Positions 1,982 to 61,025 of a stretch of 64,000 bases of DNA are shown piece by piece. This stretch comes from Patescibacteria group bacterium. GTDB taxonomy: Bacteria; Patescibacteriota; UBA1384; CAJBMM01. A model generated the notes under the pieces. That model did not search any database, was not told the DNA's origin, and saw only the letters and a program-made list of their open reading frames with translations. Location of the stretch: assembly GCA_041660565.1 (NCBI GenBank), contig JBAZWC010000002.1, positions 85,520 to 149,519 on the forward strand. Reading direction: 5' to 3'. The position numbers and the translations under genes are program-made. Every line of letters starts with the position of its first letter. The stretch's first letter is position 1.

Positions 1982-2118
1982 AGTCCCTTCTCCTCGAGAG
2001 GAGAAGGCGTCCGGAGGGCGGATGAGGAGGACAATCAATTGTTAAATGATAAATAAAGGAGTAAATTAAAGCTGAAATCACGGCCGTACATTCACAACCA
2101 GAAGGGTGGTGAGATAAG

Positions 2119-2562
2119 ATGCATTCTATGACTGCGTCCGATGCCGTCGAGAGAAGATGCGACCGTCCACGGTGCTTGCCCAAAAGCCAACCGATGATGA
2201 AACCACGATTTCTCATCAAAGGCATCGTTGCCAAATTCGACAAGGGTGTCAGAGTCTGGTGCAAAACCTACTTGCCCGAATTCCACGTGGCACCCGTCGG
2301 ACAAGCTGAGTGCGTACTTGATCAGGGATCGGTTTATCTGATCGGTCCTGTGGATGGAGTCGAACACGCCCGGTGTCAGTTAACCGACTATGGAGATGCC
2401 CTGCCTGGGTTCTACGCGGCGTACGCACTCGGCCGAAAGGGAGCGCTTTCTCCGATCATCAAGGGACCCGCGTACAACGTCCATGCGCCAGGTGCGGTTG
2501 TGCCACTTGCCGCTCTGCCAACCGCAGAACAAGTAGCGGAACATGCAAGACGATGCAGATGA
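2119..2562 (+). CDS. Hypothetical protein (GC-rich island A, gene 1)
   Basis: 147-aa ORF, RBS GGTGGTGAG 6 nt upstream of ATG. GC-rich codon usage distinct from backbone. No recognisable domain. Confidence 0.4.
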   Translation: MHSMTASDAVERRCDRPRCLPKSQPMMKPRFLIKGIVAKFDKGVRVWCKTYLPEFHVAPVGQAECVLDQGSVYLIGPVDGVEHARCQLTDYGDALPGFYAAYALGRKGALSPIIKGPAYNVHAPGAVVPLAALPTAEQVAEHARRCR

Positions 2563-2574
2563 GCAAGGAGCGGA

Positions 2575-2820
2575 TTGATGTCAGATACAAACGCGCAAGT
2601 AGTTGAACCACTATCCGATGTTGATCGACTGACCAAACTCGAGCAGGAGCAGGCGAGAATGCGTGATCAGTTTACTGCGCTAGAACGTCGAGTGAGCCAG
2701 CTCGCCACCGAGAACGAACGGCTTAACCGACGAACACTGCCGATGCAGACGTTTGGCGGCCCACCGAATGATGGCGGCGGCCTATTGGACGACACCCTAG
2801 ACGGTATGCCACCCTTGTAA
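2575..2820 (+). CDS. Small coiled-coil protein (island A, gene 2)
   Basis: 81 aa, heptad-like LTKLEQEQARMRDQFTALERRVSQLATENERLNRR. AAGGAG RBS just upstream of TTG/ATG. Adjacent to gene 1 with 12-nt spacing (operon-like). Confidence 0.5.
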   Translation: MMSDTNAQVVEPLSDVDRLTKLEQEQARMRDQFTALERRVSQLATENERLNRRTLPMQTFGGPPNDGGGLLDDTLDGMPPL

Positions 2821-2843
2821 GCACAATAAGGAGGTGATGCTAC

Positions 2844-3044
2844 TTGTCAGACAAGCCAAATCGCCCATGGCACCCGACGCGATTGTCCAAGGCAGGTCTA
2901 GAAACAACTCTCACGTCGAAGTGGAATGACGCCGGCAACCCGGACAGATGTGTCGGCGACTCAAGCGTACAAGGGCTCGGGCTTGGGGAGCTGATCAATG
3001 AGTTGGCACTCAGAGGTACAACCAGAACGCGACCCGCCAAGTAG
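2844..3044 (+). CDS. Hypothetical small protein (island A, gene 3)
   Basis: 66 aa, strong RBS AAGGAGGTG 7 nt upstream of TTG start. Confidence 0.45.
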   Translation: MSDKPNRPWHPTRLSKAGLETTLTSKWNDAGNPDRCVGDSSVQGLGLGELINELALRGTTRTRPAK

Positions 3045-3062
3045 CGCCATACGGAGGAGACA

Positions 3063-3266
3063 ATGCCGAACGACAGCCATGTTACTCCGCTTGCGCCTGA
3101 GGGAATCTCCGAGATTACCGATCAAGACGGCACTCTGACCGAAGAGCTTGATTCCCAAGCCCTGGAGTCGTTCGCCAGCAGGAGCAAGTACATCCACGAA
3201 CGGACCAAACTGCTAGCCGCGTACTATCGGGGCCACCCCTTCGAGGACTTTCGGATAACCGCATGA
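3063..3266 (+). CDS. Hypothetical small acidic protein (island A, gene 4)
   Basis: 67 aa, RBS GGAGGAG 4 nt before ATG. Confidence 0.5.
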   Translation: MPNDSHVTPLAPEGISEITDQDGTLTEELDSQALESFASRSKYIHERTKLLAAYYRGHPFEDFRITA

Positions 3267-3279
3267 CCACGCACAACAG

Positions 3280-3320
3280 GAGCCCCGGCAAACCAGCCGT
3301 GCGGCTCCTTCTTTTTATCT
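3280..3320 (+). terminator. Rho-independent terminator closing island A operon
   Basis: GGAGCC-loop-GGCTCC stem immediately followed by TTCTTTTTAT. Confidence 0.6.
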
Positions 3321-3334
3321 AACTCGCCACGAGC

Positions 3335-3367
3335 TGTCATTCCGGGCTCGACCCGGAATCTATATAA
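3335..3367 (+). repeat. R1 hairpin repeat copy b (TGTCATTCCGGGCTCGACCCGGAATCTATATAA)
   Basis: Same TGTCATTCCGG...CCGGAATCTATATAA frame with a different palindromic loop (CCGGGCTCGACCCGG). Same + orientation as copy a. R1a and R1b bracket island A. Confidence 0.8.
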
Positions 3368-3408
3368 AAAAATTCAACGTTAATTGTTAACTGTTAATAG
3401 TTAATTGT

Positions 3409-3875: not shown

Positions 3876-3958
3876 TTAGGGAATTTTAGGGTGATTAGGG
3901 ACTTTGGGGGATCCGTCGGTTATCCCAATGACCCTAATGCCCATAATCCCCCTAATGT
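3876..3958. repeat. TTAGGG-like inverted repeat with G-tracts on both strands
   Basis: ATTAGGGAATTTTAGGGTGATTAGGGACTTTGGGGG ... CCCAATGACCCTAATGCCCATAATCCCCCTAAT. The two arms are imperfect reverse complements. Four G-runs per arm. Second copy at 31743-31812. Confidence 0.7.
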
Positions 3959-5910: not shown

Positions 5911-6142
5911 AATTTTCTTGCTGGATCCCCGAATATTCCGCCAGCTGGCGGAGTCGGGGATAACAAGGGGTTCAGTCACTCCGAGACTAACTCAGAGAGT
6001 GGGCTGTTCGTGTTAGCCCCCGGTTTCCGAAGCAGAGCGAGGTACCGCCTCTACAATGCTCGTGATACATTCCTCCATCTTCCATTCTCTCTATCCTCTA
6101 TCTTCTGATTTGTGTTACTATATTAGTGTACAAGGAGGGCTA

Positions 6143-9435: not shown

Positions 9436-9560
9436 AATTTTAAATTCTAAAGCATGAAACTTGCGAGCTCGGCTCGCACAGTTACGAAATTGCTGAAGCA
9501 ATTATAAATTTTAAAAAGGTTCCTTATTTAGTCATTTAAAATTGGCAACCATTCATTTGA
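9436..9560 (+). repeat. R2 composite AT-rich interspersed repeat, copy 1 (both modules)
   Basis: Contains module GCATGAAACTTGCGAGCTCGGCTCGCACAGTTACGAAATTGCTGAAGCAATT and module AAGGTTCCTTATTTAGTCATTTAAAATTGGCAACCATTCATTTGA. Both reappear (inverted) at 45561-45745. Confidence 0.75.
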
Positions 9561-9642: not shown

Positions 9643-10182
9643 GTGAAGTTTTGCTTGATCTACTATACTAATTCTATGCCACCTAATCCGCAAGTTATCA
9701 CCACCACACGTGCTACAGCCGTACCGATGCTCTCATCTGAAACGGAGATTTTTCGCGTACATAAAAGTTACTTTTTCCTAATTGCCCCGATTATTTTTGT
9801 CTCCCTGGTTGGAATAGCACTGATTATCGCCATAAACGTGCTCTCAAATCAGATCCCAACAAACTTAATTAACTACTTACGTATTGGCATTATTGCGATG
9901 ATCGTCTTTATTGATGCTTTAATTTGGTTTGATTGGCTGACTACTATCTATACCTTAACCAATCGAAGAATACAGTACCGTTTTGGTGTTATTGGCGAAC
10001 AAACAAAAACTATTGCCCTAGATCAGATCACCGACAACAAGGTGGTTATCGGTATTTTTGGACGCATTTTTAACTATGGCGATGTGGTAATAGATGCCGC
10101 CCATATTAATAGCACTATTTCATTCAAAGGAATCGGCTCTGCTGAAAGCCGAAAAGATCAGATTGACAATGCAAAAGGGTAA
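9643..10182 (+). CDS. Membrane protein with bacterial PH (bPH_2) domain, divergent paralog of 8805..9314
   Basis: 179 aa. FRVHKSYFFLIAP motif, two TM helices, C-terminal PH-like region. Start may be internal (MPPNPQ). Confidence 0.6.
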   Translation: MKFCLIYYTNSMPPNPQVITTTRATAVPMLSSETEIFRVHKSYFFLIAPIIFVSLVGIALIIAINVLSNQIPTNLINYLRIGIIAMIVFIDALIWFDWLTTIYTLTNRRIQYRFGVIGEQTKTIALDQITDNKVVIGIFGRIFNYGDVVIDAAHINSTISFKGIGSAESRKDQIDNAKG

Positions 10183-10240
10183 ATTTTTAGGGCCGGCCGC
10201 GTAACAACGCAACCGACCCTACCTCCCCCTCGTCAAGTCA

Positions 10241-10339
10241 GACCCTCCTTAGGTCTTTGATATAGTCTCGAATCTCCGCCACTAGGACGATAACCAACGC
10301 GGGCAGAAACTCGAACCACACTCCGAGAATCTTCATCGT
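10241..10339 (-). CDS. Small (32-aa) single-TM membrane peptide, island B
   Basis: MKILGVWFEFLPALVIVLVAEIRDYIKDLRRV, with perfect RBS GAGGAGGG 7 nt upstream of ATG. Below the 60-aa cutoff of the ORF track. Immediately downstream of the 167-aa membrane protein, same strand. Confidence 0.45.
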
Positions 10340-10435
10340 GCTGCCCTCCTCAATCCTGAGAAAGACTACCGCCGAAGTGGGTGATGATGACCCACATCCC
10401 GATCACCCACTCCAGGGCTGCACGGAGCACCGATA

Positions 10436-10939
10436 TCATCTTGCCATCCTCCTTCTGACCTCTACCCTTCCCGGGTGACGAGGTCGCGGAGACATCCGAG
10501 CACGACCACCCTCGGTTGTGATCAGTCGGAGAGGGCGGTATTCCTGTCGTCGGCGGGCGCGCCTGACCTTGACGATCAGATACAGCCCCACCATGCCAAC
10601 CGCAACAGCGTAAAAGCGGTTGATGTTGAGCCAGTCGGTGATCTGTATTGTGCCCAGATCCTCGAAGGCTGTATTGTACAGCCAGATGGACGCCGGGCGA
10701 ATCGCCCATACCCACGCGGCCCAAAGCGAGCCGCAGCAGATGGCGATGATCCCACCCCAAACGGTGGAGTTAATCATCGCCCAGCGGTTGTCCGACAACC
10801 ACTGGCGGATCGAATCGCGGCAGATGTACGCCGACGCAATCGCCGAAGCGATTACCATCGCCGCGAGCCACATCACGGGGGAGTCTTGCCCCCACATCGC
10901 ACGATAAAACGCGTGCGACATGTTGTAATCGTCGTTCAT
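10436..10939 (-). CDS. Hypothetical integral membrane protein with Arg-rich C-terminal tail (GC-rich island B)
   Basis: 167 aa, 3-4 predicted TM helices, RBS GGAAGG upstream. GC-rich codon usage. No recognisable family. Confidence 0.5.
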   Translation of the reverse strand: MNDDYNMSHAFYRAMWGQDSPVMWLAAMVIASAIASAYICRDSIRQWLSDNRWAMINSTVWGGIIAICCGSLWAAWVWAIRPASIWLYNTAFEDLGTIQITDWLNINRFYAVAVGMVGLYLIVKVRRARRRQEYRPLRLITTEGGRARMSPRPRHPGRVEVRRRMAR

Positions 10940-11070
10940 GTCCGTTACCTTCCTCCCGCTTCATCGCGAGAAAAAATGAGACGAAACTGTGTTGTTCAAG
11001 AGCAATCTCAGCTACTTACAGCTCAGCATTATTACTTATATTATACACCCTACGTGTGTGTTTGTCAACC

Positions 11071-13826: not shown

Positions 13827-13995
13827 AAGACTCCTTGAAATAGGTTAGTTGATGAAAAACATATTTTTAGTACAAAATATTTACGTTCTAAGTGTAGCAC
13901 ATAGGATTAATATTGTCAATAGCAAAGTGTTGCGTCAGAATCGAAAAAGTGATATAACATAGTTAGCTACATCATCCCGATGGAGGAGAAACGCG

Positions 13996-14268
13996 ATGAC
14001 GGATCAGGTAATTCATCACGCTGTAACGCCCTCAGAAGAGGAGCCGATCACGCTGACCAAGCGCGAGACCGAGATCCTTACGCTGGTAATCGAGGGCCGG
14101 TCAAGCCAGGAAGTAGCCGACATGCTGTACGTCTCCAAGCGGACAATCGACTTCCACTTGGCGAACATCTACGAAAAGTTGCAGGTGAGCAACCGCGTGC
14201 AGGCCTTCCGGCGAGCAGCTCGCCTAGGCTTGATCCCGTTCGACCCGCACTTCGGAGAATCCGAGTGA
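13996..14268 (+). CDS. LuxR/GerE-type HTH solo transcriptional regulator (GC-rich island C)
   Basis: 90 aa. LTKRETEILTLVIEGRSSQEVADMLYVSKRTIDFHLANIYEKLQVSNRVQA is a canonical GerE/LuxR C-terminal HTH. RBS GGAGGAG upstream. Promoter-like TTGCGT-17-TATAAC at about 13935-13965. Confidence 0.8.
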   Translation: MTDQVIHHAVTPSEEEPITLTKRETEILTLVIEGRSSQEVADMLYVSKRTIDFHLANIYEKLQVSNRVQAFRRAARLGLIPFDPHFGESE

Positions 14269-14370
14269 CGACCCAGCCCAGTTTACGCGCCCGCGACAAA
14301 CCACCGTCATCGGGCGCCTTCTTTTTGCAGACACTTGACCCCGTCAGAGGTAATCGTCTCTAACGGGGTT

Positions 14371-14400
14371 GACATTACTCACCTAATCGCGTATTATAAT
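14371..14400 (+). promoter_or_regulatory. Near-consensus sigma70 promoter (TTGACA-17-TATTAT/TATAAT)
   Basis: ttgacattactcacctaatcgcgtattataat has a perfect -35 hexamer, 17-bp spacer and -10 TATTAT overlapping TATAAT. No ORF with a plausible RBS follows. Confidence 0.6.
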
Positions 14401-14404
14401 GGAT

Positions 14405-14690
14405 GTGCGAGGAATGGAGCACGCGCACAGTCGCACTGTTCGAGTTGCCACCCCGCTTAGCGGGGTAATCGGGACGTCAGCGGGACGCCCAGCGTCCTTA
14501 GCGTTCCACCATTTCGCCTACCTCGTCGGCCGGGGGGGAGAGGCAGGCGAAACGCCGGGTTGACGCGGGACTGTTTGGTACCCCCTTCCGGTCCCGCTCC
14601 CCGTCGCAATCATACCGCTCCTTTTCGGGAGCGAACGTCTCACCCGGGTGCCAACAGTGTTGTTGGTGCCCGGTTTTCTTTTATCTAAAA
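14405..14690 (+). ncRNA. Candidate structured non-coding RNA (~285 nt, GC-rich), class unknown
   Basis: Lies between the consensus promoter and an intrinsic terminator. Multiple strong local hairpins (CCCCGC-UUAG-GCGGGG, GGACGC-CCAG-GCGUCC, GCGGGAC...GUCCCGC, GCUCC-UUUUC-GGGAGC). No convincing ORF. Next gene is on the opposite strand. Confidence 0.4.
14648..14690 (+). terminator. Rho-independent terminator of the candidate ncRNA
   Basis: CCCGGGUGCCAACA-GUG-UUGUUGGUGCCCGG stem followed by UUUUCUUUUAU. Confidence 0.6.
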
Positions 14691-16860: not shown

Positions 16861-17026
16861 TTAAATTCTTTTTATAGCATGAACTCCGGGTCATGCCCTT
16901 AAGTGACAGCTGCTGACGTTTGACATATCAAATAATAAGCGTAAAGTAGTTTTTAATGCCTCAATCGCTCGAATGAGGAGCACTTTTCACATACATGTCG
17001 GCTCGGTAGGCCAAAAGGAGGCCAGC

Positions 17027-17254
17027 GTGGCGATACAGGAAGACGGAATCCCCAACGACCAAGACTGTATCCCCGCACCCGGGGAGAAAGCCGTGCGTCT
17101 GCTACTCGAGGACAATGCCAACCTACGCAGGGTGAACGAGGAGTTACGCGCGGCCAATGCAGACCTTCGCAGCAAGCTGATGGCAGCAACAGGACGGATT
17201 ACTGCCCTGACGCGCCGGACAGATGTTCAACCCGCCACCCCAACGCGCACGTGA
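17027..17254 (+). CDS. Small coiled-coil protein (island D, gene 1)
   Basis: Track ORF 16973..17254. A more likely start is GTG 17027 after RBS AAAGGAGG. Heptad-rich LEDNANLRRVNEELRAANADLRSKL. Upstream promoter-like TTGACA-16-TAAAGT at about 16920-16950. Confidence 0.45.
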   Translation: MAIQEDGIPNDQDCIPAPGEKAVRLLLEDNANLRRVNEELRAANADLRSKLMAATGRITALTRRTDVQPATPTRT

Positions 17255-17266
17255 AGGAGAGAACGC

Positions 17267-18004
17267 ATGTGCCCACCGCATTCCGTTGAGGAAGCGTCGA
17301 CTGACCCATACGACACAATCGACCTTCTTGAACAAGACATCGAGAGTCGCGACCGAACCATTGCTGATCTGCGCCGAGAGAACGCCCAGCTGTTGACCCG
17401 CGTCAACGAGCTTGGTCAGCAGAAAGCCACAGCTGAGACGCTAGCTGAGGATCTCCAGCGAGACATAGCGCTGTTGCGCCGTGAGATCCAGCGCTTGCAA
17501 TGTCAGGACACAACCACGCAGCCTGAAGATGCACCGCCAGCAACGCCATGGTTTGCGAACATCAGTTTCAGCACGAACGCATGGGAAGTGCTTGCCGTGC
17601 GTGCACCGGCGGTTGCCCGCGAGTTCAGCGAGAACTACGTCTCCACAGAGCATCTGTTGCTCGCGATACTCCGAGTTCCCGATTGTACTGCGGCGAAGTT
17701 TCTGGACTATCGCGGTGTCACCGAGCGCATCATTGCCGAGGTAAACCGGCAAGCGATGCGGGGAGATGATCGAACAACGGCTGAACCGCAACTAACCCCG
17801 CGCTGCAAGCGATGTGTCGAATTAGCGATCAACGAAGCTGCGGGCGACACTTTCGGCACCGGATACATGCTGCTCGGTTTGATCCAAGACGGTGAAGGTC
17901 TGGCGGCTCGTGTCTTGACCAAGATCTGCGGCGTGACACTCGAATCGGCTCGACGGGAGCTTCAAGCGCTGCGCCAACCCAATCCCACCCCAACGCCTGC
18001 GTAA
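17267..18004 (+). CDS. Coiled-coil protein with C-terminal double Clp_N (Clp amino-terminal R) domain (island D, gene 2)
   Basis: 245 aa. N-terminal coiled coil (DLRRENAQLLTRVNELGQQKATAETLAEDLQRDIALLRREIQRLQ), then two Clp_N-like repeats (FSTNAWEVLAVRAPAVAREFSENYVSTEHLLLAILR ... ELAINEAAGDTFGTGYMLLGLIQDGEGLAARVL). RBS GAAGGAGA. Confidence 0.6.
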   Translation: MCPPHSVEEASTDPYDTIDLLEQDIESRDRTIADLRRENAQLLTRVNELGQQKATAETLAEDLQRDIALLRREIQRLQCQDTTTQPEDAPPATPWFANISFSTNAWEVLAVRAPAVAREFSENYVSTEHLLLAILRVPDCTAAKFLDYRGVTERIIAEVNRQAMRGDDRTTAEPQLTPRCKRCVELAINEAAGDTFGTGYMLLGLIQDGEGLAARVLTKICGVTLESARRELQALRQPNPTPTPA

Positions 18005-18017
18005 AGGAAAGAGCGCC

Positions 18018-18326
18018 ATGCCGACAGACGATAGCCCCGAAGCGAGGATCGAGAGTCAGCGAACGTACATCCAGCAACTCGAGAGAGAGAAGGCTCAGCT
18101 GTCGCAAGAGCTCGCCGACGTCAGGCAGGAGATCCAGACCACCAGGAACTCGCTGCGGGAAGCACAGGAAACGCTGGCGGGGGTCGCGCCGGAAAAGCTC
18201 GAGCTTCTCGGACAGCTGCGAACCGAGCAGACGCGAAACCGCCAACTGGAGGACCGATTGGGTCTGCTCCGGTCGGTTAGCGACCAACTTTCCGCCCTAT
18301 CCGCGGAATACCCTCCGATCGAGTAG
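18018..18326 (+). CDS. Small coiled-coil protein (island D, gene 3)
   Basis: 102 aa, continuous heptads (IQQLEREKAQLSQELADVRQEIQTTRNSLREAQETL). RBS AAAGGAAAGAG. Confidence 0.5.
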   Translation: MPTDDSPEARIESQRTYIQQLEREKAQLSQELADVRQEIQTTRNSLREAQETLAGVAPEKLELLGQLRTEQTRNRQLEDRLGLLRSVSDQLSALSAEYPPIE

Positions 18327-18329
18327 CCC

Positions 18330-18378
18330 ACTTGCCCCCATCCGCTTGCGGACATGGGGGCTTGCTTTTTTGAAAAAT
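18330..18378 (+). terminator. Rho-independent terminator closing island D
   Basis: CCCCCATCCGCTTGCGGACATGGGGG hairpin followed by CTTGCTTTTTT. Confidence 0.6.
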
Positions 18379-18478
18379 ATCTGTTAAATTAATAGTAATA
18401 TAAACCAACTTTTTCCCGCGGCTAATTTGCCTCGGGTCGGGAATGAAAAAATATCCCGAACCACAGAAAGGACATTAC

Positions 18479-29953: not shown

Positions 29954-30079
29954 AGTTCATCTTCCTTTCAGATTTTGATAGGGTTTGTTTTCGTTTGTTT
30001 TCCTTATTTATATCAGTTTGAGACCTCAATAGCAAGATTTTAGGCCCTCCAACGTGCGGAGGGCCTATGGCTGGCGACT

Positions 30080-30754
30080 TCACCAGTCGATTGTAACGAT
30101 GCGAGCAAACTGGCTAGATGCGGTCATGGGATCGGCATACAGCTTGACATAGGTGACGTCCAGGCCATCTTCGACCAGATACATCACCGCCCACAGCTTC
30201 CTCGATCGATCAGGAACCCCCGGGAAAACGTGTAATCCGGGCACATACAACGGAAAGTTCATATCGCTCCGACATTTCAGCCAGATAAACTGCATCACCC
30301 GCGCCAACGGGATCGGCACCCCACCTGCCTCATCGAACATCTGCTGGTAGGTTGCCCGACGCCCCAAGTTGTTGACGGTCACCGAACAGGGCAGCGGCTC
30401 TTGCATCAACACGTCGTCCCCAAAGACATCGTGGAACGATTTGTCGATGGACCATTTGGTCAGGCCATAACCAGATACCAGATCGCCGGTGGCCAAATGC
30501 AGTGGCACAAGGTTGTTAACCAGCGGCAAGTTCACCGAAATGGTCGGCTTCAGCAACCCCGTCTGTGATGCGGGCTCGCGCGGTACTGGCGACATCAACA
30601 ACCTTCGCAACTCCGGACCAAGCAAGCTAGTGTGACCTTGCCAAAACCGTACGGCGTCAGCGGGAACTTCTTCAACGGGCATTGGAGACTGCTGCACTAG
30701 CATTGCATGCAGCTCTTTCAGCATTCTTGCTTGGGCTCTCTCATGTTCTGGCAT
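30080..30754 (-). CDS. Hypothetical protein, LARVWQY-motif paralog family member E1 (GC-rich island E)
   Basis: 224 aa. Shares PLARVMQFIWLKCRS…FPGVPDR with E2 (SLARVWQYLHVACRS…RVPNR) and F1 (ITLARVWQYVALY). Identical 96-bp leader upstream. Confidence 0.55.
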   Translation of the reverse strand: MPEHERAQARMLKELHAMLVQQSPMPVEEVPADAVRFWQGHTSLLGPELRRLLMSPVPREPASQTGLLKPTISVNLPLVNNLVPLHLATGDLVSGYGLTKWSIDKSFHDVFGDDVLMQEPLPCSVTVNNLGRRATYQQMFDEAGGVPIPLARVMQFIWLKCRSDMNFPLYVPGLHVFPGVPDRSRKLWAVMYLVEDGLDVTYVKLYADPMTASSQFARIVTIDW

Positions 30755-30847
30755 GAGCTATCCCCTTTACGTTTTACGCCCGCCGGCGTAACGGCTCGCC
30801 TGTTCGAGCCGTTTGAATCCACACAAAAAATACCACAAAAAGTGGTA
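30752..30847 (-). promoter_or_regulatory. Duplicated 5' leader/regulatory module, copy 1 (identical to 31619-31714)
   Basis: Sense orientation: TACCACTTTTTGTGGTA (perfect IR), U-run, AACGGCTCG-AACAGG-CGAGCCGTT hairpin, ACGCC-GGCG-GGCGT hairpin, AAAGGGGA RBS, ATG. 96/96 identical between copies. Confidence 0.7.
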
Positions 30848-30910
30848 AATGTCTAGAATGAAATCGGCCCCGGGGGTTAGCCGGGGCCGGAGTGTTTGAC
30901 GTGCCTGATG

Positions 30911-31621
30911 TCAACTGGCGTAGACCAGCACATTGGCTTGGACCGGATCATCCAGCGGGTGAGCATCCAACATAATCCACGACTTACCCGTGCTGTGATC
31001 CGGAGTAGCGCAAACGACAACATGAGCGCCATTGCGGTTCGGGACTCGGATGAAAGCGTGGCTGGTGTCACCCATACTGATCAAACTCTCGCATGACCGA
31101 CACGCCACATGGAGGTACTGCCACACCCGTGCCAACGACAACGACCGCACCGGGTAGGCTATCGTCCCAGCAACGTCTTGGTAGGTATCTCTTTCTTTCG
31201 GATGTACGCGATTACAGACTGTCACGTTCCCAGCTAGCCACAGGATTATCGGCCCGATCCCTCTGAACGCCTCAGTGAACGAATCATCAAGGATCACGCC
31301 CCAATTGTTGATGGCAACGCCGTCAGATTTGTCAAAGCGCCGATTGTGCCAGTACTCATCCGGCGGCAACTGGATGGTTATCAGTTTCTCCAGTACCGTC
31401 TCGTCAAACGCCGGTGGAAAGACGCATCGTAGGCCAGCTTGCATCGCCTCCCCTAGCAGGCTCTTGTGCGCTAGCAGATATTCGACATGTTGCATCGAGA
31501 TGCCAGCACCGGGAGTCGGCGCCTTCGCCAAGACAGCAGTGTACCAATCATGAACGTAGCCCGCAGTCAGCAAATCGACTCCCCGATCTCTTGCCTGGGC
31601 TGTCTCACGGTCCGTAGACAT
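30911..31621 (-). CDS. Hypothetical protein, LARVWQY-motif paralog family member E2
   Basis: 236 aa, see E1. Starts with the same leader and ATG context (rc of CATGAGCTATCC). Confidence 0.55.
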   Translation of the reverse strand: MSTDRETAQARDRGVDLLTAGYVHDWYTAVLAKAPTPGAGISMQHVEYLLAHKSLLGEAMQAGLRCVFPPAFDETVLEKLITIQLPPDEYWHNRRFDKSDGVAINNWGVILDDSFTEAFRGIGPIILWLAGNVTVCNRVHPKERDTYQDVAGTIAYPVRSLSLARVWQYLHVACRSCESLISMGDTSHAFIRVPNRNGAHVVVCATPDHSTGKSWIMLDAHPLDDPVQANVLVYAS

Positions 31622-31714
31622 GAGCTATCCCCTTTACGTTTTACGCCCGCCGGCGTAACGGCTCGCCTGTTCGAGCCGTTTGAATCCACACAAAAAATAC
31701 CACAAAAAGTGGTA
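31619..31714 (-). promoter_or_regulatory. Duplicated 5' leader/regulatory module, copy 2
   Basis: Exact repeat of 30752-30847. Upstream flanks differ. Confidence 0.7.
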
Positions 31715-31742
31715 GGTGTCCATATTTGACGTAAGGGTAGTT

Positions 31743-33143: not shown

Positions 33144-33220
33144 TGTCATTTCGACCCTACGAGAATGTCAATTCGAGTATGTTGGAGAAATCTTAAAGAA
33201 GAATCCCTTCCAGTATATAA
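33144..33220 (+). repeat. R1-related repeat copy f (TGTCATTTCGACC ... GGAGAAATCTTAAAGAAG variant)
   Basis: Shares TGTCATTTCGAC head and GGAGAAATCT tail with copies h (38281) and i (48567). Confidence 0.65.
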
Positions 33221-33221
33221 A

Positions 33222-33252
33222 AAGAACGCCTCCCAACTTGCAGGGAGGCGTC
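33222..33252 (-). terminator. Terminator hairpin of F1 (ACGCCTCCC-AACTTGCA-GGGAGGCGT)
   Basis: On the minus strand, GGGAGGCGT is followed by TCTTTTTATATA. Paralogous hairpin at 34052-34082 after F2. Confidence 0.55.
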
Positions 33253-33261
33253 GAGTACACG

Positions 33262-33906
33262 TCAAGCAACGACGACGCGGGCGCCAGCGTTCAGCTCATC
33301 CGAACCATGGGCGATGTTGAAATGTACACGATTTTTTCCTGCCCAGCGTGTGAAATCCATTCTTACACCGTGTACATGTCCCAAATGGTCGAGCACGTAT
33401 GGAATGTAGTATCGCCACGCCCAAGACTGGTCATCTTGGATGTACAACGCGACATACTGCCATACACGAGCCAAGGTTATTCCGATCTGACGGTGTAATT
33501 CTGGCGACACTCCGGTGCAGTCTGTCATCGAGGTGGTCTTGAGTATGTGAAGCTTAGCCGACATGCGCTCGTCAAGCCGATTTTCACTGTCGAGCATATC
33601 AGACGTGAAGATGGAACGGAACTCATCGCTCGTCTTCTCTATTCTCACCTCATCGCCAATAAACGCGCCCTGGGCAAACTTCTCCCTGAGGTCAAACCCC
33701 GTCAACGCTGGTAGTACAACGGAATACCAGAGCTCCAGAAGTTGTCGTCCCGCTGGTCTCGGCAGTTTGGACTTGACGTAAGTGACAAACTGGTCTGGGT
33801 GTTCGATCAACGCTTTTTGGAAGTCATCGTCCCCAACCCCACGCTCCTCCAGTAAGCGAGCCAGCTCGCCCACCTTTCTTGCACTAATAGGCTGCACGGT
33901 TGCCAC
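33262..33906 (-). CDS. Hypothetical protein, LARVWQY-motif paralog family member F1 (GC-rich island F)
   Basis: 214 aa, GTG start with AGGTG RBS. ITLARVWQYVALYIQDD motif. Upstream 79-bp leader duplicated at 34719-34799. Confidence 0.55.
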   Translation of the reverse strand: MATVQPISARKVGELARLLEERGVGDDDFQKALIEHPDQFVTYVKSKLPRPAGRQLLELWYSVVLPALTGFDLREKFAQGAFIGDEVRIEKTSDEFRSIFTSDMLDSENRLDERMSAKLHILKTTSMTDCTGVSPELHRQIGITLARVWQYVALYIQDDQSWAWRYYIPYVLDHLGHVHGVRMDFTRWAGKNRVHFNIAHGSDELNAGARVVVA

Positions 33907-33917
33907 CGCAACACCTA

Positions 33918-33996
33918 TTTGCCTTTCTGCGCCCTTCGACGCGGCCTTGGCCCGACAGTTCGGACCGTTGGTAAAGAACTAGCCAAAACGATACCA
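33918..33996 (-). promoter_or_regulatory. Second duplicated leader family, copy 1 (matches 34719-34799)
   Basis: TTTGCCTTTCTGCGCC..GACGCGGCCTTGGCCCGACAGTTCGGACCGTTGGTAAAGAACTAGCCAAAACGATACCA, about 75/79 identical to copy 2. Contains GGUCCG/CGGGCC hairpin (sense). Confidence 0.65.
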
Positions 33997-34017
33997 CTTT
34001 AATCCGTATTTGTCCAC

Positions 34018-34050
34018 TGTCATTCCGGATTTAATTCGGAATCTATATAA
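34018..34050 (+). repeat. R1 hairpin repeat copy g (TGTCATTCCGGATTTAATTCGGAATCTATATAA)
   Basis: One mismatch in the stem relative to copies a and e. Confidence 0.8.
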
Positions 34051-34090
34051 GAAGAACGCCTCCTAAGCATCAGGAGGCGTCGAATACCGG

Positions 34091-34711
34091 TCAACCGATG
34101 ACCAGACTGAATGATCTGAACGCGTCAAAGTTCCATCCGCGTCTGTTGTAACCGAGACGACAGATGACATCCGGATCGAACTTGACCCACACTCTGACGT
34201 GTGTGCCATTTACCGGCAGTACTCCGTCTGCACCTCGTCCCTGTGGTTTGATCAGCTGAATCAGGTGGGCGGGGTGGATCGGGATTGGTTGGTCGCCACT
34301 ACCGACTCCCACGATCATCATTCCCGATGACTCCGAGGTGCGAAATGGGCGGTAAACCACGTCTACTGATGGAATAATTATGGGGGTTTTGTCGAAATCG
34401 AGTGCCGTCGCCCAAAAGTCTGGAGAAAAAGCATCGATCTTGACACCGTCACCTAGGTCCACGGTCCCGTTGTAGAGATCAGACACCACGACATTGCGTT
34501 GTTCTGGGAGGTGGATTCGAAAGCTGCCATCATGTCCGATCGACAACTGATGCGTGTACTGGTTCTTCAACGATTCCGGCGGCTCTCTGCGCAGGAATAG
34601 GCACAATTGCCTTAACCACTCAGAGCCATTTCTTCCGCATAGCTTATCCCACAAATCCTTCATCGGTCCGTGTGCATCACGGAGCGACACACCGAGCATG
34701 TCATCAGACAT
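34091..34711 (-). CDS. Hypothetical protein, distant paralog F2
   Basis: 206 aa. Weak similarity to E1 (REPPESL vs REPASQTGL region). Same leader family as F1. Own terminator hairpin at 34052-34082. Confidence 0.5.
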   Translation of the reverse strand: MSDDMLGVSLRDAHGPMKDLWDKLCGRNGSEWLRQLCLFLRREPPESLKNQYTHQLSIGHDGSFRIHLPEQRNVVVSDLYNGTVDLGDGVKIDAFSPDFWATALDFDKTPIIIPSVDVVYRPFRTSESSGMMIVGVGSGDQPIPIHPAHLIQLIKPQGRGADGVLPVNGTHVRVWVKFDPDVICRLGYNRRGWNFDAFRSFSLVIG

Positions 34712-34718
34712 GGTCAGT

Positions 34719-34799
34719 TTTTGCCTTTCTGCGCCTTAAAGACGCGGCCTTGGCCCGACAGTTCGGACCGTTGGTAAAGAACTAGCCAAAACGATACCA
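34719..34799 (-). promoter_or_regulatory. Second duplicated leader family, copy 2
   Basis: See 33918-33996. Confidence 0.65.
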
Positions 34800-34872
34800 T
34801 CAAAACTAGCGCTTGTCGAGACGTAGAAAATCAAAATTTCAAATTCATCGTTATTCTTGCTACAATATCCCT

Positions 34873-42111: not shown

Positions 42112-42132
42112 AATGGACAAATAAAGACGGCG

Positions 42133-42157
42133 GCTGGATCAACCAGCCGCCGGTAAG
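42133..42157 (+). terminator. Hairpin CGGCGGCTGG-ATCAA-CCAGCCGCCG after tagD-like gene
   Basis: Perfect 10-bp GC stem. No clear T-run. Abuts the stop of the convergent GC-rich gene 42168..43214. Confidence 0.45.
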
Positions 42158-42167
42158 GCACGAGCTA

Positions 42168-43214
42168 CTACAGGAGGGAATCGATGAACGTCGCCGCGCG
42201 CAAGGCGCTGTTGTCATCGAACGCGGGCCCGCGCCCAACCCGAGGAGGGGCATTCAGCATATCGCGCAGATCGGCGAGAGTACGTGCTTCTGCAACGTAC
42301 CCAGCCTCGACCCAGGGAAACCTCGGGGCGATAGTGGCGTCTTTCTCGTACATCTTGTCCGTGTGCGGCAAAGCGTAGTTGACTGCCGAAACGCCCATCG
42401 CGGCGGCCCGACCAAGCACCGTGGAATACGGCGCGATAACCACGTCGGATGCCGCAATGACTTCATCGGTTGTGAAGTCGCTAGTGTCGACCGCCATGTC
42501 TCCCAGGCTCGCGAATGCAGCCTGATACGCCGCAAACTCCTCTGGCGCTCGCTCAGCCAAACGTGGATGCGGACGAAGCGCCGCGCGGACAGGGAACGTG
42601 CATGTCATGATCACGCGCACCACGTTGCGCATCATCTCGCCAGTCTGTTCAATACTACTGAACGCCGACACCAGGCACCACTCGGGCGAAATACCCAACT
42701 CCTGTCGGACCCAGCAACGTACGGCATCCATTTCGAACCCAGCCAGTCGGTCGAACGCCGGGTAACCGGTGACGACAGCGCGGTCGGGATTGAAATCGGG
42801 CCAGGCGCGCAGAATGATCTGCTTCCCGACCTCATCACCGGCGGTGATGTAGTCGGGCCGCGCGTTCGGCCACTCGTCGTTGGTGAGGGCGCCACTGACC
42901 GGATAGTCGGAAAGCGCTACCACCGGGCCGGTGTATCCGTTCTGGCGCAAGTGCTGCACCAGAGCGAACCCGATGTTGCCCGATGAATCGAGAGATGTTA
43001 CGACCAGGTCAGGCATCCACCCGAGCTTGTCGCAGCATTCCGGCCCCAGGCAGAGATAGCTGGTCGCCCCTTCGATCAGTAGTTTGGTCGCCGGTCCATC
43101 GGCAACCACTCGAACCGTGTTGCGCTGGTCTTGTGCCAACTGCCGATACACCGGGATAATGCCCTCGGCCCCTCCGGTATCGGCGCAGATCATCAGGATA
43201 TTGCGTTTGCTCAA
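42168..43214 (-). CDS. CDP-glycerol glycerophosphotransferase (TagB/TagF)-like GT-B protein, GC-rich island G
   Basis: 348 aa. C-terminal …LRPHPRL…DEVIAASDVVIAPYSTVLGRAAAMGVSAVNY resembles the TagF-family catalytic region. GC content is higher than both flanks. Confidence 0.5.
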   Translation of the reverse strand: MSKRNILMICADTGGAEGIIPVYRQLAQDQRNTVRVVADGPATKLLIEGATSYLCLGPECCDKLGWMPDLVVTSLDSSGNIGFALVQHLRQNGYTGPVVALSDYPVSGALTNDEWPNARPDYITAGDEVGKQIILRAWPDFNPDRAVVTGYPAFDRLAGFEMDAVRCWVRQELGISPEWCLVSAFSSIEQTGEMMRNVVRVIMTCTFPVRAALRPHPRLAERAPEEFAAYQAAFASLGDMAVDTSDFTTDEVIAASDVVIAPYSTVLGRAAAMGVSAVNYALPHTDKMYEKDATIAPRFPWVEAGYVAEARTLADLRDMLNAPPRVGRGPAFDDNSALRAATFIDSLL

Positions 43215-43378
43215 TCTCGTTCTCCTCCCTTCAGGACATGCAACGATCAGAGTACCAGTATTTTATCTCATTTATCTATTTTTGTCAATCTCGATACGCT
43301 ATCAAATTATTGCGTAATAAACCAGACTCTATCATTTTTGCCCAGAAGTGCTATAACAGTTAATAGACAAGGAGATTC

Positions 43379-44377: not shown

Positions 44378-44378
44378 T

Positions 44379-58142: not shown

Positions 58143-59553
58143 AGTATTGTGGATTCTAAATAAATACGTTGACGGGCAAAACCACAGCCAGTTTTATCCG
58201 TATTTTTTGGCGGATTTGGAAAAAGAGTGCTTATCAAAAGAAATTCAACTTGAGTTTACCTATTTTAGCGATGCGCAAAAAAAGTGCGATCGGACGCAAC
58301 ATCATCATTTTTTCTTTGAACATCATCGCAAAATAACTGATTTCCACCGAGAAGCGGCTCGCATTGAAAACGAATATAATTTTACCCTAAATCACGCCTA
58401 TTATTCGGACATTATTCAGGTCACCAAAACTCAAGATACTCGTCGCATAACCGTACCGGAAAAAGAGCTTAATAATCATCAATTATTAGTAGAGAAATTT
58501 GTCTACCTAGAGAACTTAGTCAAAAAGAACGGGTATGACGTTATTTTTTGCGATCAATCTCCTGAGGCCGAAGCGGAATTTGGACGGGTGATAGCGCTGA
58601 AAAATAATTTGGTTTTCATTCGTCATGGCGAAGGTTTTTTGGCCAACAGCTTATTCAGCCAACAATTCGAGTTCGGCAAAGAGCGATTGTCAGAAGCGGT
58701 TTTGAATACAGACGTTACACTAGAACAAGCCAAAGAGTTTGTGCGAGATTTTATTAAAAACAAAAGGCCGCCGTATCAATATCCGGAAACCCACAAAGCC
58801 AGCGCCTTAAAGTTTTATTCCGCTCGCATCGCTCATTTTTACCGCTACCCCAATTTTATTAAAATGGCTTTGTCTCAGCCGTGGCTGTGGTTTGAGGAAA
58901 AATGGCTAAAAAGACGACTGGAAAAGCAGTTTGACCCCACCGCATCGTATCTGTTTTTAGGATTGCAGCTGCCAACCGAATCTACCATAGTGCTGCGTTC
59001 GCAACCATACGCCAATCAATCACTAATTATTGAGGCCATCAGCCGAGTCTTACCCGATAACACCCTGTTATATGTGCGTGAACATCCAAAATGGCGTAAA
59101 CATTTTCCGGCGCGATTCCTTGGTCAAATTGCCTCACTACCAAACGTGCGTTTAATTTCGCCACAAATCCCGGCATGGGAGGTTATTCATCATGCCAAAG
59201 CGGTTTTAACCTACAACTCTACCATCGGCATTGAAGCGCTAATGCACGGCAAGCCGGTGCTCTCTTTTGCGCCAAATGTCTACATCAACCAACACCCGGC
59301 CGTTACTTTGTGCACAAATTTATATGATTTGGACCATAGCTTGGCTAAGTTGGTTAATACTAAAGTTGAGATAGAGGACACTTACAAATACATCTACAAA
59401 ATGATGCGTATCAGCAGCTGGGTGCCATTGTGGGCCAGCGGATTTTTATCTGAAGATGATGCCCAAAAAAAGGCCGGCGTGTTTAGCCAGCATTTACTAT
59501 TAGCGATTAAAGATTGCCAAAATTGGCAAAAAAATAACGGGCACTTGCGCTAG
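58135..59553 (+). CDS. GT-B transferase paralog (KpsS/KpsC-like or TagB/F-like)
   Basis: 472 aa. …YLFLGLQLPTES…VREHPKW…LTYNSTIGIEALMHGKPVLSFAP. Same architecture as 55364..56815. Confidence 0.5.
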   Translation: MIKVLWILNKYVDGQNHSQFYPYFLADLEKECLSKEIQLEFTYFSDAQKKCDRTQHHHFFFEHHRKITDFHREAARIENEYNFTLNHAYYSDIIQVTKTQDTRRITVPEKELNNHQLLVEKFVYLENLVKKNGYDVIFCDQSPEAEAEFGRVIALKNNLVFIRHGEGFLANSLFSQQFEFGKERLSEAVLNTDVTLEQAKEFVRDFIKNKRPPYQYPETHKASALKFYSARIAHFYRYPNFIKMALSQPWLWFEEKWLKRRLEKQFDPTASYLFLGLQLPTESTIVLRSQPYANQSLIIEAISRVLPDNTLLYVREHPKWRKHFPARFLGQIASLPNVRLISPQIPAWEVIHHAKAVLTYNSTIGIEALMHGKPVLSFAPNVYINQHPAVTLCTNLYDLDHSLAKLVNTKVEIEDTYKYIYKMMRISSWVPLWASGFLSEDDAQKKAGVFSQHLLLAIKDCQNWQKNNGHLR

Positions 59554-59585
59554 CAAGCACCCGCTTTGGAGCAACCATCAGCTGG

Positions 59586-60188
59586 TCAGGAGAAGAGTGC
59601 CAGCACCACTCCAGAGACGAACAACCATTGTCCGAGCAACGCCTCCGGGGTCAGTCTGACGTAGTACTCTATCAGCCACTCGTCTACCGTCTTGGAGTAA
59701 TAGCCCAGCACCACGTCTCCAGGTATTGCCCGGACGAGATAACGCCGCCCGTTTGCGGTGCCGAACAGTCGGTAGAAAGTTGGCGAAAACGGCCCGAGCC
59801 AGGTTAGCCCGCAGCCATTCGCCTCGCCTGTGCTGTCGTGCACGAAGTGCATGATCAGGCAAGTGAATGCCAGCAACCCCCAGAACAACTGGTTTCCGTG
59901 CAGCCACTGAGCGATCAGCACCGTGACAGCCACCACCACAGGGACGAACAGGATGGGGAAGTGGAACAGATCGCGATGGTGTTTGATCTTCACTCCCATT
60001 CTCTTGAGCAAGGCGCCGACCACAATGTCGGCGTCTGGCAGCACCGAAAACGCCATGCCCGCCAGATAGCACCAGTAGCTAACGTGGACATCGAGTCCCT
60101 TTGCCAGCAGGTACGTCAGCCACAACCCTACACCAAAGTCATGCAAGGCGGCGTTGGTCAGCCCAAACAACCTCGTCGTGGGCGACAT
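59586..60188 (-). CDS. Membrane-bound metal-dependent hydrolase, YdjM/DUF457-like (GC-rich island H)
   Basis: 200 aa, 4-5 TM helices. HHRDLFHFP and HDSTG motifs. GC-rich codon usage. Confidence 0.6.
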   Translation of the reverse strand: MSPTTRLFGLTNAALHDFGVGLWLTYLLAKGLDVHVSYWCYLAGMAFSVLPDADIVVGALLKRMGVKIKHHRDLFHFPILFVPVVVAVTVLIAQWLHGNQLFWGLLAFTCLIMHFVHDSTGEANGCGLTWLGPFSPTFYRLFGTANGRRYLVRAIPGDVVLGYYSKTVDEWLIEYYVRLTPEALLGQWLFVSGVVLALFS

Positions 60189-60198
60189 TGTCCCCCTC

Positions 60199-60942
60199 CT
60201 AGGGTATGGGCGAGATGATTCCCGACGCGGAATAGCGTTTGACGCGCTCGATCTCGCCTTCGAGCACCTTGGACAGTCTGACGTTGTAGCCGTATCCCAT
60301 CAGAGACGGGATACCAACGACTTCACGTGTCACGCTGGTTAGACCACCAATCCAGTGTCGTGCGGTGCGGAATACCCGAGGAACATGGTAATCCGTCGTC
60401 ACCAGCACAACATGTCCGATAGTCTCGTATCGCAGGTAATCTGCCAGAACCTGAAGTTGAGTACCGGTGTTTGCCGACCCTGTTGGGCCGCAATCGAGGT
60501 AAGTGATCGCGTCGGCGGGCATACCAGCCGAGACAGCGATGCCGCGACTCTCGATCTCCTCTTCGGTCTCGCCATCGATCACGAGGGTGGGGAGACAGGA
60601 CGCAGCTTCGAGTACCATTCTGACAGCGGCACGAATTCGATCCGCGTTCTCTTCGGTGTCAGCGTGCTCACGCGGGCCGGTCTTTGGCCCACAGTAGGTG
60701 CCGGTCAACATCACCACGTGAGTGGTGTTGTCCGGGACAGTCAATGGTTGTCGCGCCGCATTGTAGCACGCGACGTACTCGTCAATCAGGCCGCCCCGGT
60801 CCGGGTATCGGCAGCGCAGAACATCCCATTCCCGATCAGTCACATGCATCACTCGGTTTTGATCCAATGACGTTTCCCCCTTTGGGATCGATTTGTTAAG
60901 GAAGCGTGTATTACAGATCGCACACCTGCGACGATAAACCAT
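60199..60942 (-). CDS. DUF218 (YdcF/ElyC/SanA-like) domain protein (GC-rich island H)
   Basis: 247 aa. HVVMLTGTYCG… and HVVLVTTDYHVPRVFRTARHWIGGL match the DUF218 pattern (xVTSxYHMxRA). Confidence 0.55.
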   Translation of the reverse strand: MVYRRRCAICNTRFLNKSIPKGETSLDQNRVMHVTDREWDVLRCRYPDRGGLIDEYVACYNAARQPLTVPDNTTHVVMLTGTYCGPKTGPREHADTEENADRIRAAVRMVLEAASCLPTLVIDGETEEEIESRGIAVSAGMPADAITYLDCGPTGSANTGTQLQVLADYLRYETIGHVVLVTTDYHVPRVFRTARHWIGGLTSVTREVVGIPSLMGYGYNVRLSKVLEGEIERVKRYSASGIISPIP

Positions 60943-61025
60943 ATCTTACTTTATTTTAGCCCCCTTGTCAACCAATTCGGAAGATTGGGGATGGAAAATA
61001 GATGATAGATTTTGGTAATTTTCCT

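Follow-up and report, generated by a model that had tools for sequence, protein, structure and literature searches.

Small GC-rich gene cassettes in the intergenic spacers of a Patescibacteria housekeeping region as candidate moron-like accessory islets

Gene content of the locus

The DNA considered here is a stretch of 64,000 nucleotides (called the window below, always at its full length) from a Patescibacteria group bacterium (GenBank assembly GCA_041660565.1, contig JBAZWC010000002.1, positions 85,520 to 149,519 of the forward strand), in which eight GC-rich islands are set into an AT-rich backbone. These islands, numbered 1 to 8 along the window, lie in intergenic spacers, are 0.8-1.7 kb in size and hold one to four genes each; island proteins are recorded for this Patescibacteria group bacterium under locus tags WC773_03055 to 03220 and protein accessions MFA6082362-MFA6082411.

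The backbone consists of ordinary housekeeping genes of the Candidate Phyla Radiation (CPR), encoding PPDK, RecX, RecA, FtsK, RNase J, UDG, YchF, S6, SSB, EF-P, VanW and enolase, together with an integral-membrane protein of 708 amino acids (aa) that reads by eye as a proton-pumping pyrophosphatase. From about 41.5 kb it continues as a nonulosonic-acid/capsule cluster of the pseudaminic-acid type, with PseB, PseC, CTP_transf_3, GT28_C, WbqC, NeuB, two Capsule_synth proteins and flippases. No tRNA or tmRNA gene lies within the window, and no integrase or recombinase was returned by a Pfam scan of 61 window proteins, GroEL, the H+-PPase, enolase and the truncated PPDK open reading frame (ORF) being unscanned. 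Regarding affiliation, RNase J relatives at 69-80% identity are few, several of them coming from groundwater, and the next tier, at 59-64% identity, belongs to Berkelbacteria or Patescibacteria. The original prediction had named an actinobacterial host as candidate donor in case the organism were a Saccharibacterium; with such a next tier and no identifiable donor this proposal was not borne out, and the organism is not demonstrated to be a Saccharibacterium.

Compositional contrast between islands and backbone

The window as a whole has a GC content of 45.8%, the eight segments range from 51.8 to 60.8% (56.2% when pooled) and the remainder stands at 43.8%. An independent sliding-window detector (300-bp windows, GC above the median + 0.09, length of at least 600 bp) returned exactly eight segments, at 2120-3388, 10133-11032, 13929-14780, 16917-18471, 30018-31746, 33600-34515, 41952-43300 and 59472-60970, and thereby recovered the eight islands that had been claimed from the sequence. 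The GC-rich share found by this detector amounts to 15.7% of the window, compared with 2.3% of 418 kb of comparator contigs. At the level of single genes both GC and GC3 are bimodal and the GC contents do not overlap, island genes lying at 0.53-0.61 and backbone genes reaching 0.50 at most, and the contrast is weakest for island 6, where genes stand at 0.53. GC content at third codon positions (GC3) is 0.655 in islands and 0.466 in the backbone (Mann-Whitney p=2.5e-9), with ranges of 0.55-0.76 for island genes and 0.34-0.55 for 45 backbone genes.

All three codon positions show the deviation. Frame-specific GC picks out a single coding frame in each island and, together with the Pfam matches described below, argues that the islands are coding DNA and not structured RNA alone. 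Correlations of relative synonymous codon usage are 0.36-0.77 between islands and 0.04-0.35 between island and backbone, while one half of the backbone correlates with the other at 0.94. The amino acids used by island genes also lean the way a GC-rich genome would predict, with Arg, Pro and Ala up and Lys, Ile and Asn down; Arg makes up 7.9% of residues in islands and 4.2% in the backbone, Lys 2.7% and 6.4%, and Ile 4.9% and 8.2%. The codons CTG, CTC, ATC and GCG are commoner in islands, and TTA and ATT rarer; of the three GC-rich codons named by the original prediction, CTG is thus enriched and GCC and CGC are not. The strong GGAGG-type ribosome-binding sites that it had noted hold up: with starts taken from the longest ORFs, GGAGG is found before 6 of the 16 genes in islands and 2 of the 45 in the backbone, and most cassette genes are preceded by a strong Shine-Dalgarno sequence. 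Expression-linked codon bias was considered as a cause of the high GC3 of the islands and rejected, since the S6, SSB, EF-P and GroEL-size genes of the window are not GC3-rich.

Anatomy of the islands

Each island has a match to a sigma70-like promoter at its 5' end and to a terminator with a GC stem and T tract at its 3' end, as had been foreseen, and the strongest promoter matches of the scanned regions are located at island 5' ends. The top scores are 12/12 at 11068-11040 (island 2), 11/12 at 14369-14397 (downstream of the LuxR gene of island 3) and 11/12 at 43288-43260 (island 7). These consensus matches support the prediction that the islands are autonomous transcription units. The islands had also been described as lying often between convergent genes, which is true of island 2 only; the remaining ones are placed between co-directional or divergent genes.

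Island 1 (1982..3335, plus strand, GC 0.55) holds four small ORFs with GC3 of 0.55-0.68, namely 2119-2562 (147 aa; called at 121 aa by JGI), 2575-2820 (an 81-aa coiled-coil protein), 2844-3044 (66 aa) and 3063-3266 (67 aa), followed by a GC-stem terminator at ~3278-3320. None of the four has a Pfam family above threshold. Its neighbours are PPDK, which starts at 1843 on the minus strand and is 84% identical to the PPDK of L083 (one of the contigs of relatives treated below), and RecX, whose stop lies at 3409.

Island 2 (10190..11070, minus strand, GC 0.58) is headed by a perfect TTGACA-17-TATAAT promoter (11068-11040) and encodes a 167-aa protein with multiple transmembrane segments (10436-10939; GC3 0.73), a 29-aa hydrophobic peptide (~10350-10439) and a 32-aa hydrophobic peptide (10238-10336). 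These last two are unannotated micro-ORFs (10238-10439, minus strand), each with its own GGAGG-type ribosome-binding site, and the start of the 29-aa micro-ORF overlaps the stop of the 167-aa gene through ATGA, an arrangement that suggests translational coupling of the two.

Two units can be told apart in island 3, both on the plus strand. The former (13913..14330) is a LuxR/GerE solo regulator of 90 aa (ORF 13996-14268, GC3 0.76) between a promoter-like site (13913-13941) and a terminator of its own (~14290-14325); it matches Pfam GerE (PF00196) with E=5.5e-19 and 68 bits against a cut-off of 23.5, and has no receiver or autoinducer domain. The latter (14369..14685) is a candidate non-coding RNA of ~280 nt, with a TTGACA-17-TATTAT promoter at 14369-14397, an expected transcript at ~14404-14685 and a terminator with a 13-bp stem at 14644-14673. 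Its predicted fold has a minimum free energy of -133.4 kcal/mol (z=-3.56 relative to shuffled sequences), and it contains no credible ORF, the sole ATG (14399) being upstream of the expected transcription start.

Island 4 (16865..18380, plus strand) is a three-gene operon in which two genes for coiled-coil proteins, of 93 aa (16973-17254) and 102 aa (18018-18326), enclose one for a 245-aa protein (17267-18004), with a promoter at 16920-16947, a terminator at ~18325-18372 and a hairpin repeat, R1, just upstream at 16816-16860. The 245-aa protein combines an N-terminal coiled coil with C-terminal Clp_N repeats (Pfam Clp_N E=1.8e-15).

Placed at the edge of the pseudaminic-acid/capsule gene cluster, island 7 (42115..43290, minus strand) holds a single orphan enzyme of 348 aa (42168-43214) between a TTGACA-17-TAAAAT promoter (43288-43260) and a terminator (42152-42128). 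The protein is tentatively regarded as probably having a GT-B fold, judging from an AlphaFold model that is poor (pLDDT 49). The TagF-like identity originally assigned to it, which would make it a CDP-glycerol glycerophosphotransferase, was overstated, as the Pfam match to Glyphos_transf is sub-threshold (E 0.022) and the low-confidence model indicates a generic GT-B fold only.

Island 8 (59536..60971, minus strand, GC 0.57-0.58) pairs a DUF218 gene (60199-60942), the true start of which is probably internal to these coordinates, with a gene for a YdjM-family membrane hydrolase (59586-60188). Its promoter lies at 60971-60943 and its terminator, with a 13-bp stem, at 59565-59536; an R1 copy (61015-61059) is found just outside. 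Pfam confirmed the LuxR, Clp_N, YdjM and DUF218 contents that had been read from the sequence.

A paralogue family with shared leaders in islands 5 and 6

In island 5 (30000..31740, minus strand) the genes are a pair of divergent paralogues, one of 236 aa (30911-31621) and the other of 224 aa (30080-30754), and each has a separate terminator (e.g., 30889-30865). Both are preceded by a promoter and a two-hairpin leader which, over 102 nt (31619-31720 and 30752-30853), are 98% identical to each other. The family has two more members in island 6 (33220..34830, minus strand), one of 206 aa (34091-34711) and one of 214 aa (33262-33906). They share a 59-nt upstream block with 100% identity (34741-34799 and 33938-33996); their terminators are at 34081-34055 and 33252-33225, and an R1 copy (34006-34050) lies between the two paralogues.

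The 236-aa and 224-aa proteins form the sole significant BLASTP pair in the family (E=1e-10, 26% identity). The island 6 pair is joined to the family by a profile-profile match to the island 5 pair (hhalign E=1e-4), by motifs common to a ten-sequence alignment of the four paralogues and six weak homologues, which is too divergent to yield search patterns, and by related upstream regions, the promoter and two leader hairpins being common to both pairs. The two leader types differ by two compensatory and two wobble changes, and no base pair is broken.

That leaders so nearly alike stand before proteins with 26% identity points to gene conversion or to a 5' region under strong constraint. As a separate observation, the leader regions of the four paralogues (30752-30853, 31619-31720, 33907-34000 and 34712-34800, minus strand) accompany proteins that are at most 29% identical, and the shared leader may represent either a cis-regulatory RNA or a tract of gene conversion. 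A search of Rfam with the candidate small RNA of island 3 and the paralogue leaders gave nothing at gathering thresholds, and at E<1 only chance-level miRNA matches.

The four paralogues form a rare, lectin-like family of ~200 aa with a fold of the C-type-lectin/FGE type. They can be likened to ligand-binding proteins of the C-type-lectin/FGE-sulfatase fold, including the variable proteins of diversity-generating retroelements such as TvpA of T. denticola. A role as such a variable protein was rejected, there being neither a reverse transcriptase nor a pair of template and variable repeats. Sequence searches of the PDB with two profiles returned nothing significant, and no fold match was found in the viral fold collection BFVD.

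Empty and occupied sites in relatives

Loci of relatives, fetched around RNase J homologues and designated by contig (L081, L083 and so on), allow several island sites to be compared. The presence/absence check among sister genomes that the original prediction had called for shows the sites of islands 1, 2 and 4 to be empty elsewhere. The RecX|PPDK spacer measures 112 bp in L083 and holds a 1.45-kb island in the window; the YchF|RpsF (S6) spacer measures 240 bp in L087 and 1.6 kb in the window; and for RNase J|bPH_2 the 0.9 kb of the window compares with a spacer of 62 bp (L083) or 10 bp (L088). A scan of genome contigs with the YchF pattern ENYPFCTI yielded only proteobacterial loci at 55-59% identity, the pattern being universal.

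The RNase J|bPH_2 spacer is occupied in the window, L081, L087 and L133, in each case by a promoter followed by small membrane-protein genes that cannot be aligned with each other. A perfect TTGACA-17-TATAAT follows closely after the RNase J stop in the window (11040-11068, minus strand), in L081 (~12130-12160) and in L087 (~12070-12100), and a near-consensus TTGACA-17-TACAAT was read by eye at the same place in L133 (~2150-2185). The small genes behind these promoters have GC3 values of 0.65, 0.54, 0.57 and 0.73, each above that of its own neighbours.

Counterparts of islands 3 and 7 were also found. In L134, the closest relative, an orthologue of the LuxR solo that is 79% identical lies near UDG and RNase J, the latter being 80-83% identical; its GC is 0.50 where the backbone has 0.42-0.47, and its GC3 is 0.58 where neighbours have 0.36-0.45. 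In L085, a 38%-GC contig, a homologue of the 348-aa protein stands divergently beside PseB as it does in the window, with a GC content of 49.5% against ~30-41% for most neighbours (three are at 0.43-0.46) and GC3 of 0.50 against ~0.30; at four-fold degenerate sites its GC is 0.59, compared with 0.26-0.33 for the adjacent PseB and PseC. Third-base identity at four-fold sites of conserved residues is 0.16-0.36 for the backbone, 0.41 for LuxR (n=22) and 0.26 for the 348-aa pair, meaning that these sites are saturated.

Since positional counterparts exist in relatives, the cassettes of islands 2, 3 and 7 are not recent arrivals, and their excess GC has persisted, or was renewed, in separate lineages. 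The original prediction had named homologues of similar GC at the same loci in CPR relatives as a sign of ancestral and not acquired genes; such homologues were found for islands 2, 3 and 7. Taken over the islands as a whole, the comparison shows some cassettes to be old in this clade and others to be variably present.

Other genes of the relatives that lack a Pfam match are also GC-richer than their neighbours, as in L085 (8130-8663 and 12538-13386, 0.43-0.45 against ~0.37) and in L088 (11616-12101, 0.55 against 0.44 around it), which hints at a recurrence of GC-rich orphan genes in this group.

Searches for homologues and donors

Of ten island proteins looked up, seven were found in a collection of 15 billion sequences, all as singleton clusters at 90% identity that are confined to this contig of 374,447 bp. 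A search of 5.8 billion proteins gave a single homologue, 39% identical, for the 348-aa protein, and the Clp_N protein has five weak ones at 39-47% identity, confined to its Clp_N half; two of these have readable context, on contigs that are uniform in GC (63% and 52%) and unlike CPR in appearance. Among 1.84 billion representatives, a HMMER profile built on the four paralogues recovered nothing beyond the paralogues and six weak matches (E 6e-5 to 8e-4). The one with readable context, in L135, is encoded between rpsJ and rplC on a 34%-GC, CPR-like contig and is close to the backbone in composition.

That locus deserves mention in its own right, as three ORFs without a Pfam match (L135, 7408-9331), one of them the homologue of the paralogue family, separate rpsJ from rplC and so break an S10 operon that is normally invariant, and more accessory genes are found between EF-G and EF-Tu and after rplB.

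Among the one, five and six weak matches of these three proteins or families, no actinobacterial closest homologue is named; YdjM, DUF218 and islands 1-2 were not searched at full depth. Counterparts of two of the searched proteins or families are located in CPR-like contigs, and a context resembling that of the window is met nowhere but in further CPR-like contigs. Against PHROGs, NCBIfam and PADLOC the island proteins matched nothing more specific than generic Clp_N, HTH and coiled-coil families, so that no phage, plasmid, defence-system or NCBIfam family accounts for the islands. For DUF218, tblastn returned nothing from plasmids, and a scan of viral contigs gave no relative; against phages, tblastn gave generic Clp_N-domain matches only; and comparing the islands by blastn and tblastn with every locus fetched added no match to those already known.

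The R1 hairpin and other repeats

R1 is a perfect palindrome with a 9-bp stem, TGTCATTCCGG-N7-CCGGAATCTATATAA, found in spacers and followed by a conserved CTATATAA tail. Five copies are present at island edges, at 1936-1980, 3323-3367, 16816-16860, 34006-34050 and 61015-61059, very nearly where the original prediction had placed them, and the first two (1936-1980 and 3323-3367), in direct orientation, enclose island 1. All five copies (5/5) lie in island-adjacent spacers, such spacers making up 41% of the intergenic DNA (p~0.012). Looser relatives of R1 occur at ~5875, 9336, 33144 and 38281, one of the four being at an island, and islands 2, 3, 5 and 7 are without R1. The exact motif is found at 42 loci in JGI metagenomes, all of them on unrelated AT-rich contigs (36-48% GC), each of which has a single exact copy, often with an inverted partner, and flanks at backbone GC. 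An R1-related pair is present in L081, and a scan of viral collections found nothing.

Because these 42 AT-rich loci have no GC-rich flanks, R1 is a generic, widespread REP-like hairpin and not a marker of cassettes, and with so weak an association the repeat-marked insertion hotspots first suggested do not hold. It resembles REP-like intergenic repeats in being a short palindrome in spacers with several copies per genome, often in inverted pairs elsewhere, and in being widespread; a REP-associated transposase (RAYT) was not seen, no search aimed at one having been made.

Repeats of other kinds were encountered in the window. Tandem 9-nt repeats, CCCTAATGC / CCCAATGAC, resembling the CCCTAA telomere motif, lie at 3924-3955 (RecX-RecA spacer) and 31777-31808 (between island 5 and enolase). 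AT-rich intergenic repeats unrelated to R1, of 61-123 nt and 72-92% identity, occur at 9500-9560, 20970-21030 and 25463-25523, and the same class forms the pairs 20927-21049 / 25420-25542 and 45562-45681 / 48633-48752. Within the gene of a 483-aa protein, a 243-nt internal repeat (39304-39546 and 39691-39933; 76% identity, 387-nt spacing) together with weak Ig-like/CARDB/DUF11 matches indicates a surface protein of repeated domains.

Two features of the backbone can be added here. Enolase, identified by eye (~430 aa combined), is split into overlapping ORFs of 295 aa (32252-33139) and 175 aa (31815-32342) on the minus strand (31815-33139 in all), and the frameshift thereby implied at ~32250-32340 may reflect an error in sequencing, a pseudogene or programmed frameshifting. 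FtsK (6056-8293, plus strand) is opposite in strand to RNase J and RecA, which are co-oriented with it in L081, L083 and L087, and this suggests a local inversion.

Origin of the islands

The reading favoured here, with a probability put at roughly 0.55, is that the eight segments are moron-like accessory islets drawn from, or exchanging with, a GC-richer gene pool. Each cassette would be expressible independently of the surrounding housekeeping genes through its own promoter and terminator. The cassette genes would have evolved in a pool richer in GC than the backbone, or would still be exchanging with one; composition at all codon positions and amino-acid usage are the grounds for supposing such a horizontal origin. 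The likeliest source would be other Patescibacteria or their mobile elements, and not an actinobacterial host, and the cassettes would have entered the spacers through recombination, unaided by a dedicated integrase. For Patescibacteria of groundwater, up to 13% of the length of a genome is reported to consist of genomic islands, prophages and transferred genes taken together; 83% of the inferred transfers are intra-phylum, and exchange is mostly not recent (PMC12455944). The repeated horizontal acquisition originally proposed is retained as regards foreign-looking composition, self-contained units and at least three sites empty in relatives, and not retained as regards recent, host-derived or repeat-targeted arrival.

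Several points weigh against this reading. The counterparts of islands 2, 3 and 7 are GC-elevated in spite of saturated four-fold sites, and had there been one ancient transfer and then neutral amelioration, the GC signal should be gone, so that the cassettes would have to be re-supplied or kept GC-rich. A donor was found for no island. Gain and loss cannot be polarised without a phylogeny, the predicted island promoters and terminators rest on consensus matches, and the use of longest-ORF starts may understate Shine-Dalgarno use in backbone genes.

It can alternatively be hypothesized that the islands are native, vertically inherited, lineage-specific genes whose GC is upheld by selection on the mRNA or codons of strongly promoted genes or by gene conversion biased towards GC (gBGC) at accessory loci prone to recombination, gBGC having been proposed for bacteria (PMC4450053). 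Several observations speak for it: the LuxR orthologue and the 348-aa homologue keep an elevated GC3 in two lineages each with four-fold sites saturated, the L085 homologue exceeds PseB and PseC at those sites (0.59 against 0.26-0.33), the island 2 site has a conserved promoter and GC3-elevated small genes in four genomes, and leaders that are 98-100% identical before 26%-identical paralogues can be taken as gene conversion within islands. Against it, the reported effects of bacterial gBGC are a few GC3 points and not 20-30. Expression-linked codon selection is also unlikely, with ribosomal-protein, GroEL-size and EF-P genes not GC3-rich; the shift from Lys to Arg and the differing Shine-Dalgarno usage resemble another genomic background, several sites are empty in relatives, and the paralogue homologue of L135 is near backbone composition. 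Altogether, a native origin is the main rival of the favoured reading and is considered rather unlikely. That the islands stem from faulty assembly or binning, GC-rich pieces of a different organism having been spliced in, would be compatible with the source being a metagenome-assembled genome, for which short foreign inserts are a known failure mode. Nevertheless, the ends of all eight inserts coincide exactly with spacer boundaries, and their promoters and terminators are intact; SRR18595301, assembled separately in Logan, yields a contig (L086, 4,128 bp) that is identical to, and colinear with, window positions 41475-45602, giving island 7, both its junctions and its flanks base for base; further island proteins are found on other, short Logan contigs; and homologous units occupy the same sites in other assemblies. 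Chimeric assembly is thus considered very unlikely.

Two more specific origins are very improbable. Repeated recent acquisition from a high-GC host, e.g., an actinobacterium parasitised by a Saccharibacterium, would suit a composition that fits a donor of 58-63% GC, and the nearest Clp_N homologue with context does lie on a uniformly 63%-GC contig. Yet no homologue above 47% identity exists for the searched island proteins among 5.8 billion sequences, plasmids give no matches and phages only the generic Clp_N domain, three islands have positional counterparts in related CPR contigs, synonymous sites are saturated and the Saccharibacterium identity is not demonstrated. Similarly little credence can be given to a dedicated, integron-like cassette system inserting at R1 hairpins as attC- or att-like sites: the position of all five R1 copies in island-adjacent spacers and of island 1 between a direct R1 pair speaks for such a system, but the association is weak (p~0.012, with looser hairpins at islands in one case of four), islands 2, 3, 5 and 7 have no R1, the motif recurs in 42 unrelated AT-rich contigs with flanks that are not GC-rich, no integrase or recombinase was detected among the 61 scanned proteins, and the cassettes have their own promoters and both orientations, unlike integron cassettes. 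An integron cassette array proper was likewise rejected, with neither integrase nor attC, own promoters, genes on both strands and R1 being a simple hairpin with a 9-bp stem.

Relation to known systems

Morons have been characterised as lying between conserved genes, with their own promoter and terminator, deviant GC and different occupants at the same hotspot (PMC2920897). The islets described here agree with the morons of temperate phages (Hendrix et al.) in their insertion between genes, predicted promoters and terminators and deviant GC, and the RNase J|bPH_2 spacer has different occupants. They differ in lying in a housekeeping chromosome (RecA/RecX, PPDK, RNase J, YchF, S6, enolase, PseB) and not in a prophage, and in deviating upward in GC. 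No phage genes or families were found at the islets, PHROG matches being to the Clp_N domain only, and a prophage was rejected for want of phage genes. Mobile DNA is usually AT-richer than its host, whereas these islets are GC-richer than the host genome.

With the genomic islands of Patescibacteria (PMC12455944), the islets share the character of compositionally deviant accessory DNA in CPR, exchange being mostly intra-phylum and not recent; at ~1 kb, however, they are far smaller than classical islands, and three persist at syntenic sites. Of the features of a classical genomic island they show compositional deviation, and none of a size above 10 kb, adjacency to tRNA or tmRNA genes, an integrase or flanking direct repeats, the flanking repeats of island 1 alone being the generic R1. 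The islets are of a known kind, small horizontally mobile islets, and are unusual in the direction of their GC deviation, their density and their persistence.

Significance

CPR genomes are tiny and streamlined, and which accessory genes they keep, and how these are acquired, is largely unknown. About one sixth of this 64-kb stretch consists of orphan cassettes predicted to be self-expressed, which are candidates for lineage-specific functions in the envelope or in regulation. The analysis provides leads in the form of the candidate small RNA, the conserved two-hairpin leader and the rare lectin-like protein family. A more far-reaching proposition, regarded as doubtful for the time being, is that small accessory genes (the LuxR solo, the spacer membrane peptides and the GT-B enzyme) keep a synonymous GC excess of 10-30 points at fixed sites across saturated divergence in a family-level clade. 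If true, this persistent excess would call either for a non-mutational force that singles out certain genes, e.g., strong gBGC or transcript selection, or for a hidden GC-rich mobile pool overwriting the same loci. In this respect the islets offer a compact test case for distinguishing gene-specific GC upheld by biased gene conversion from recurrent replacement.

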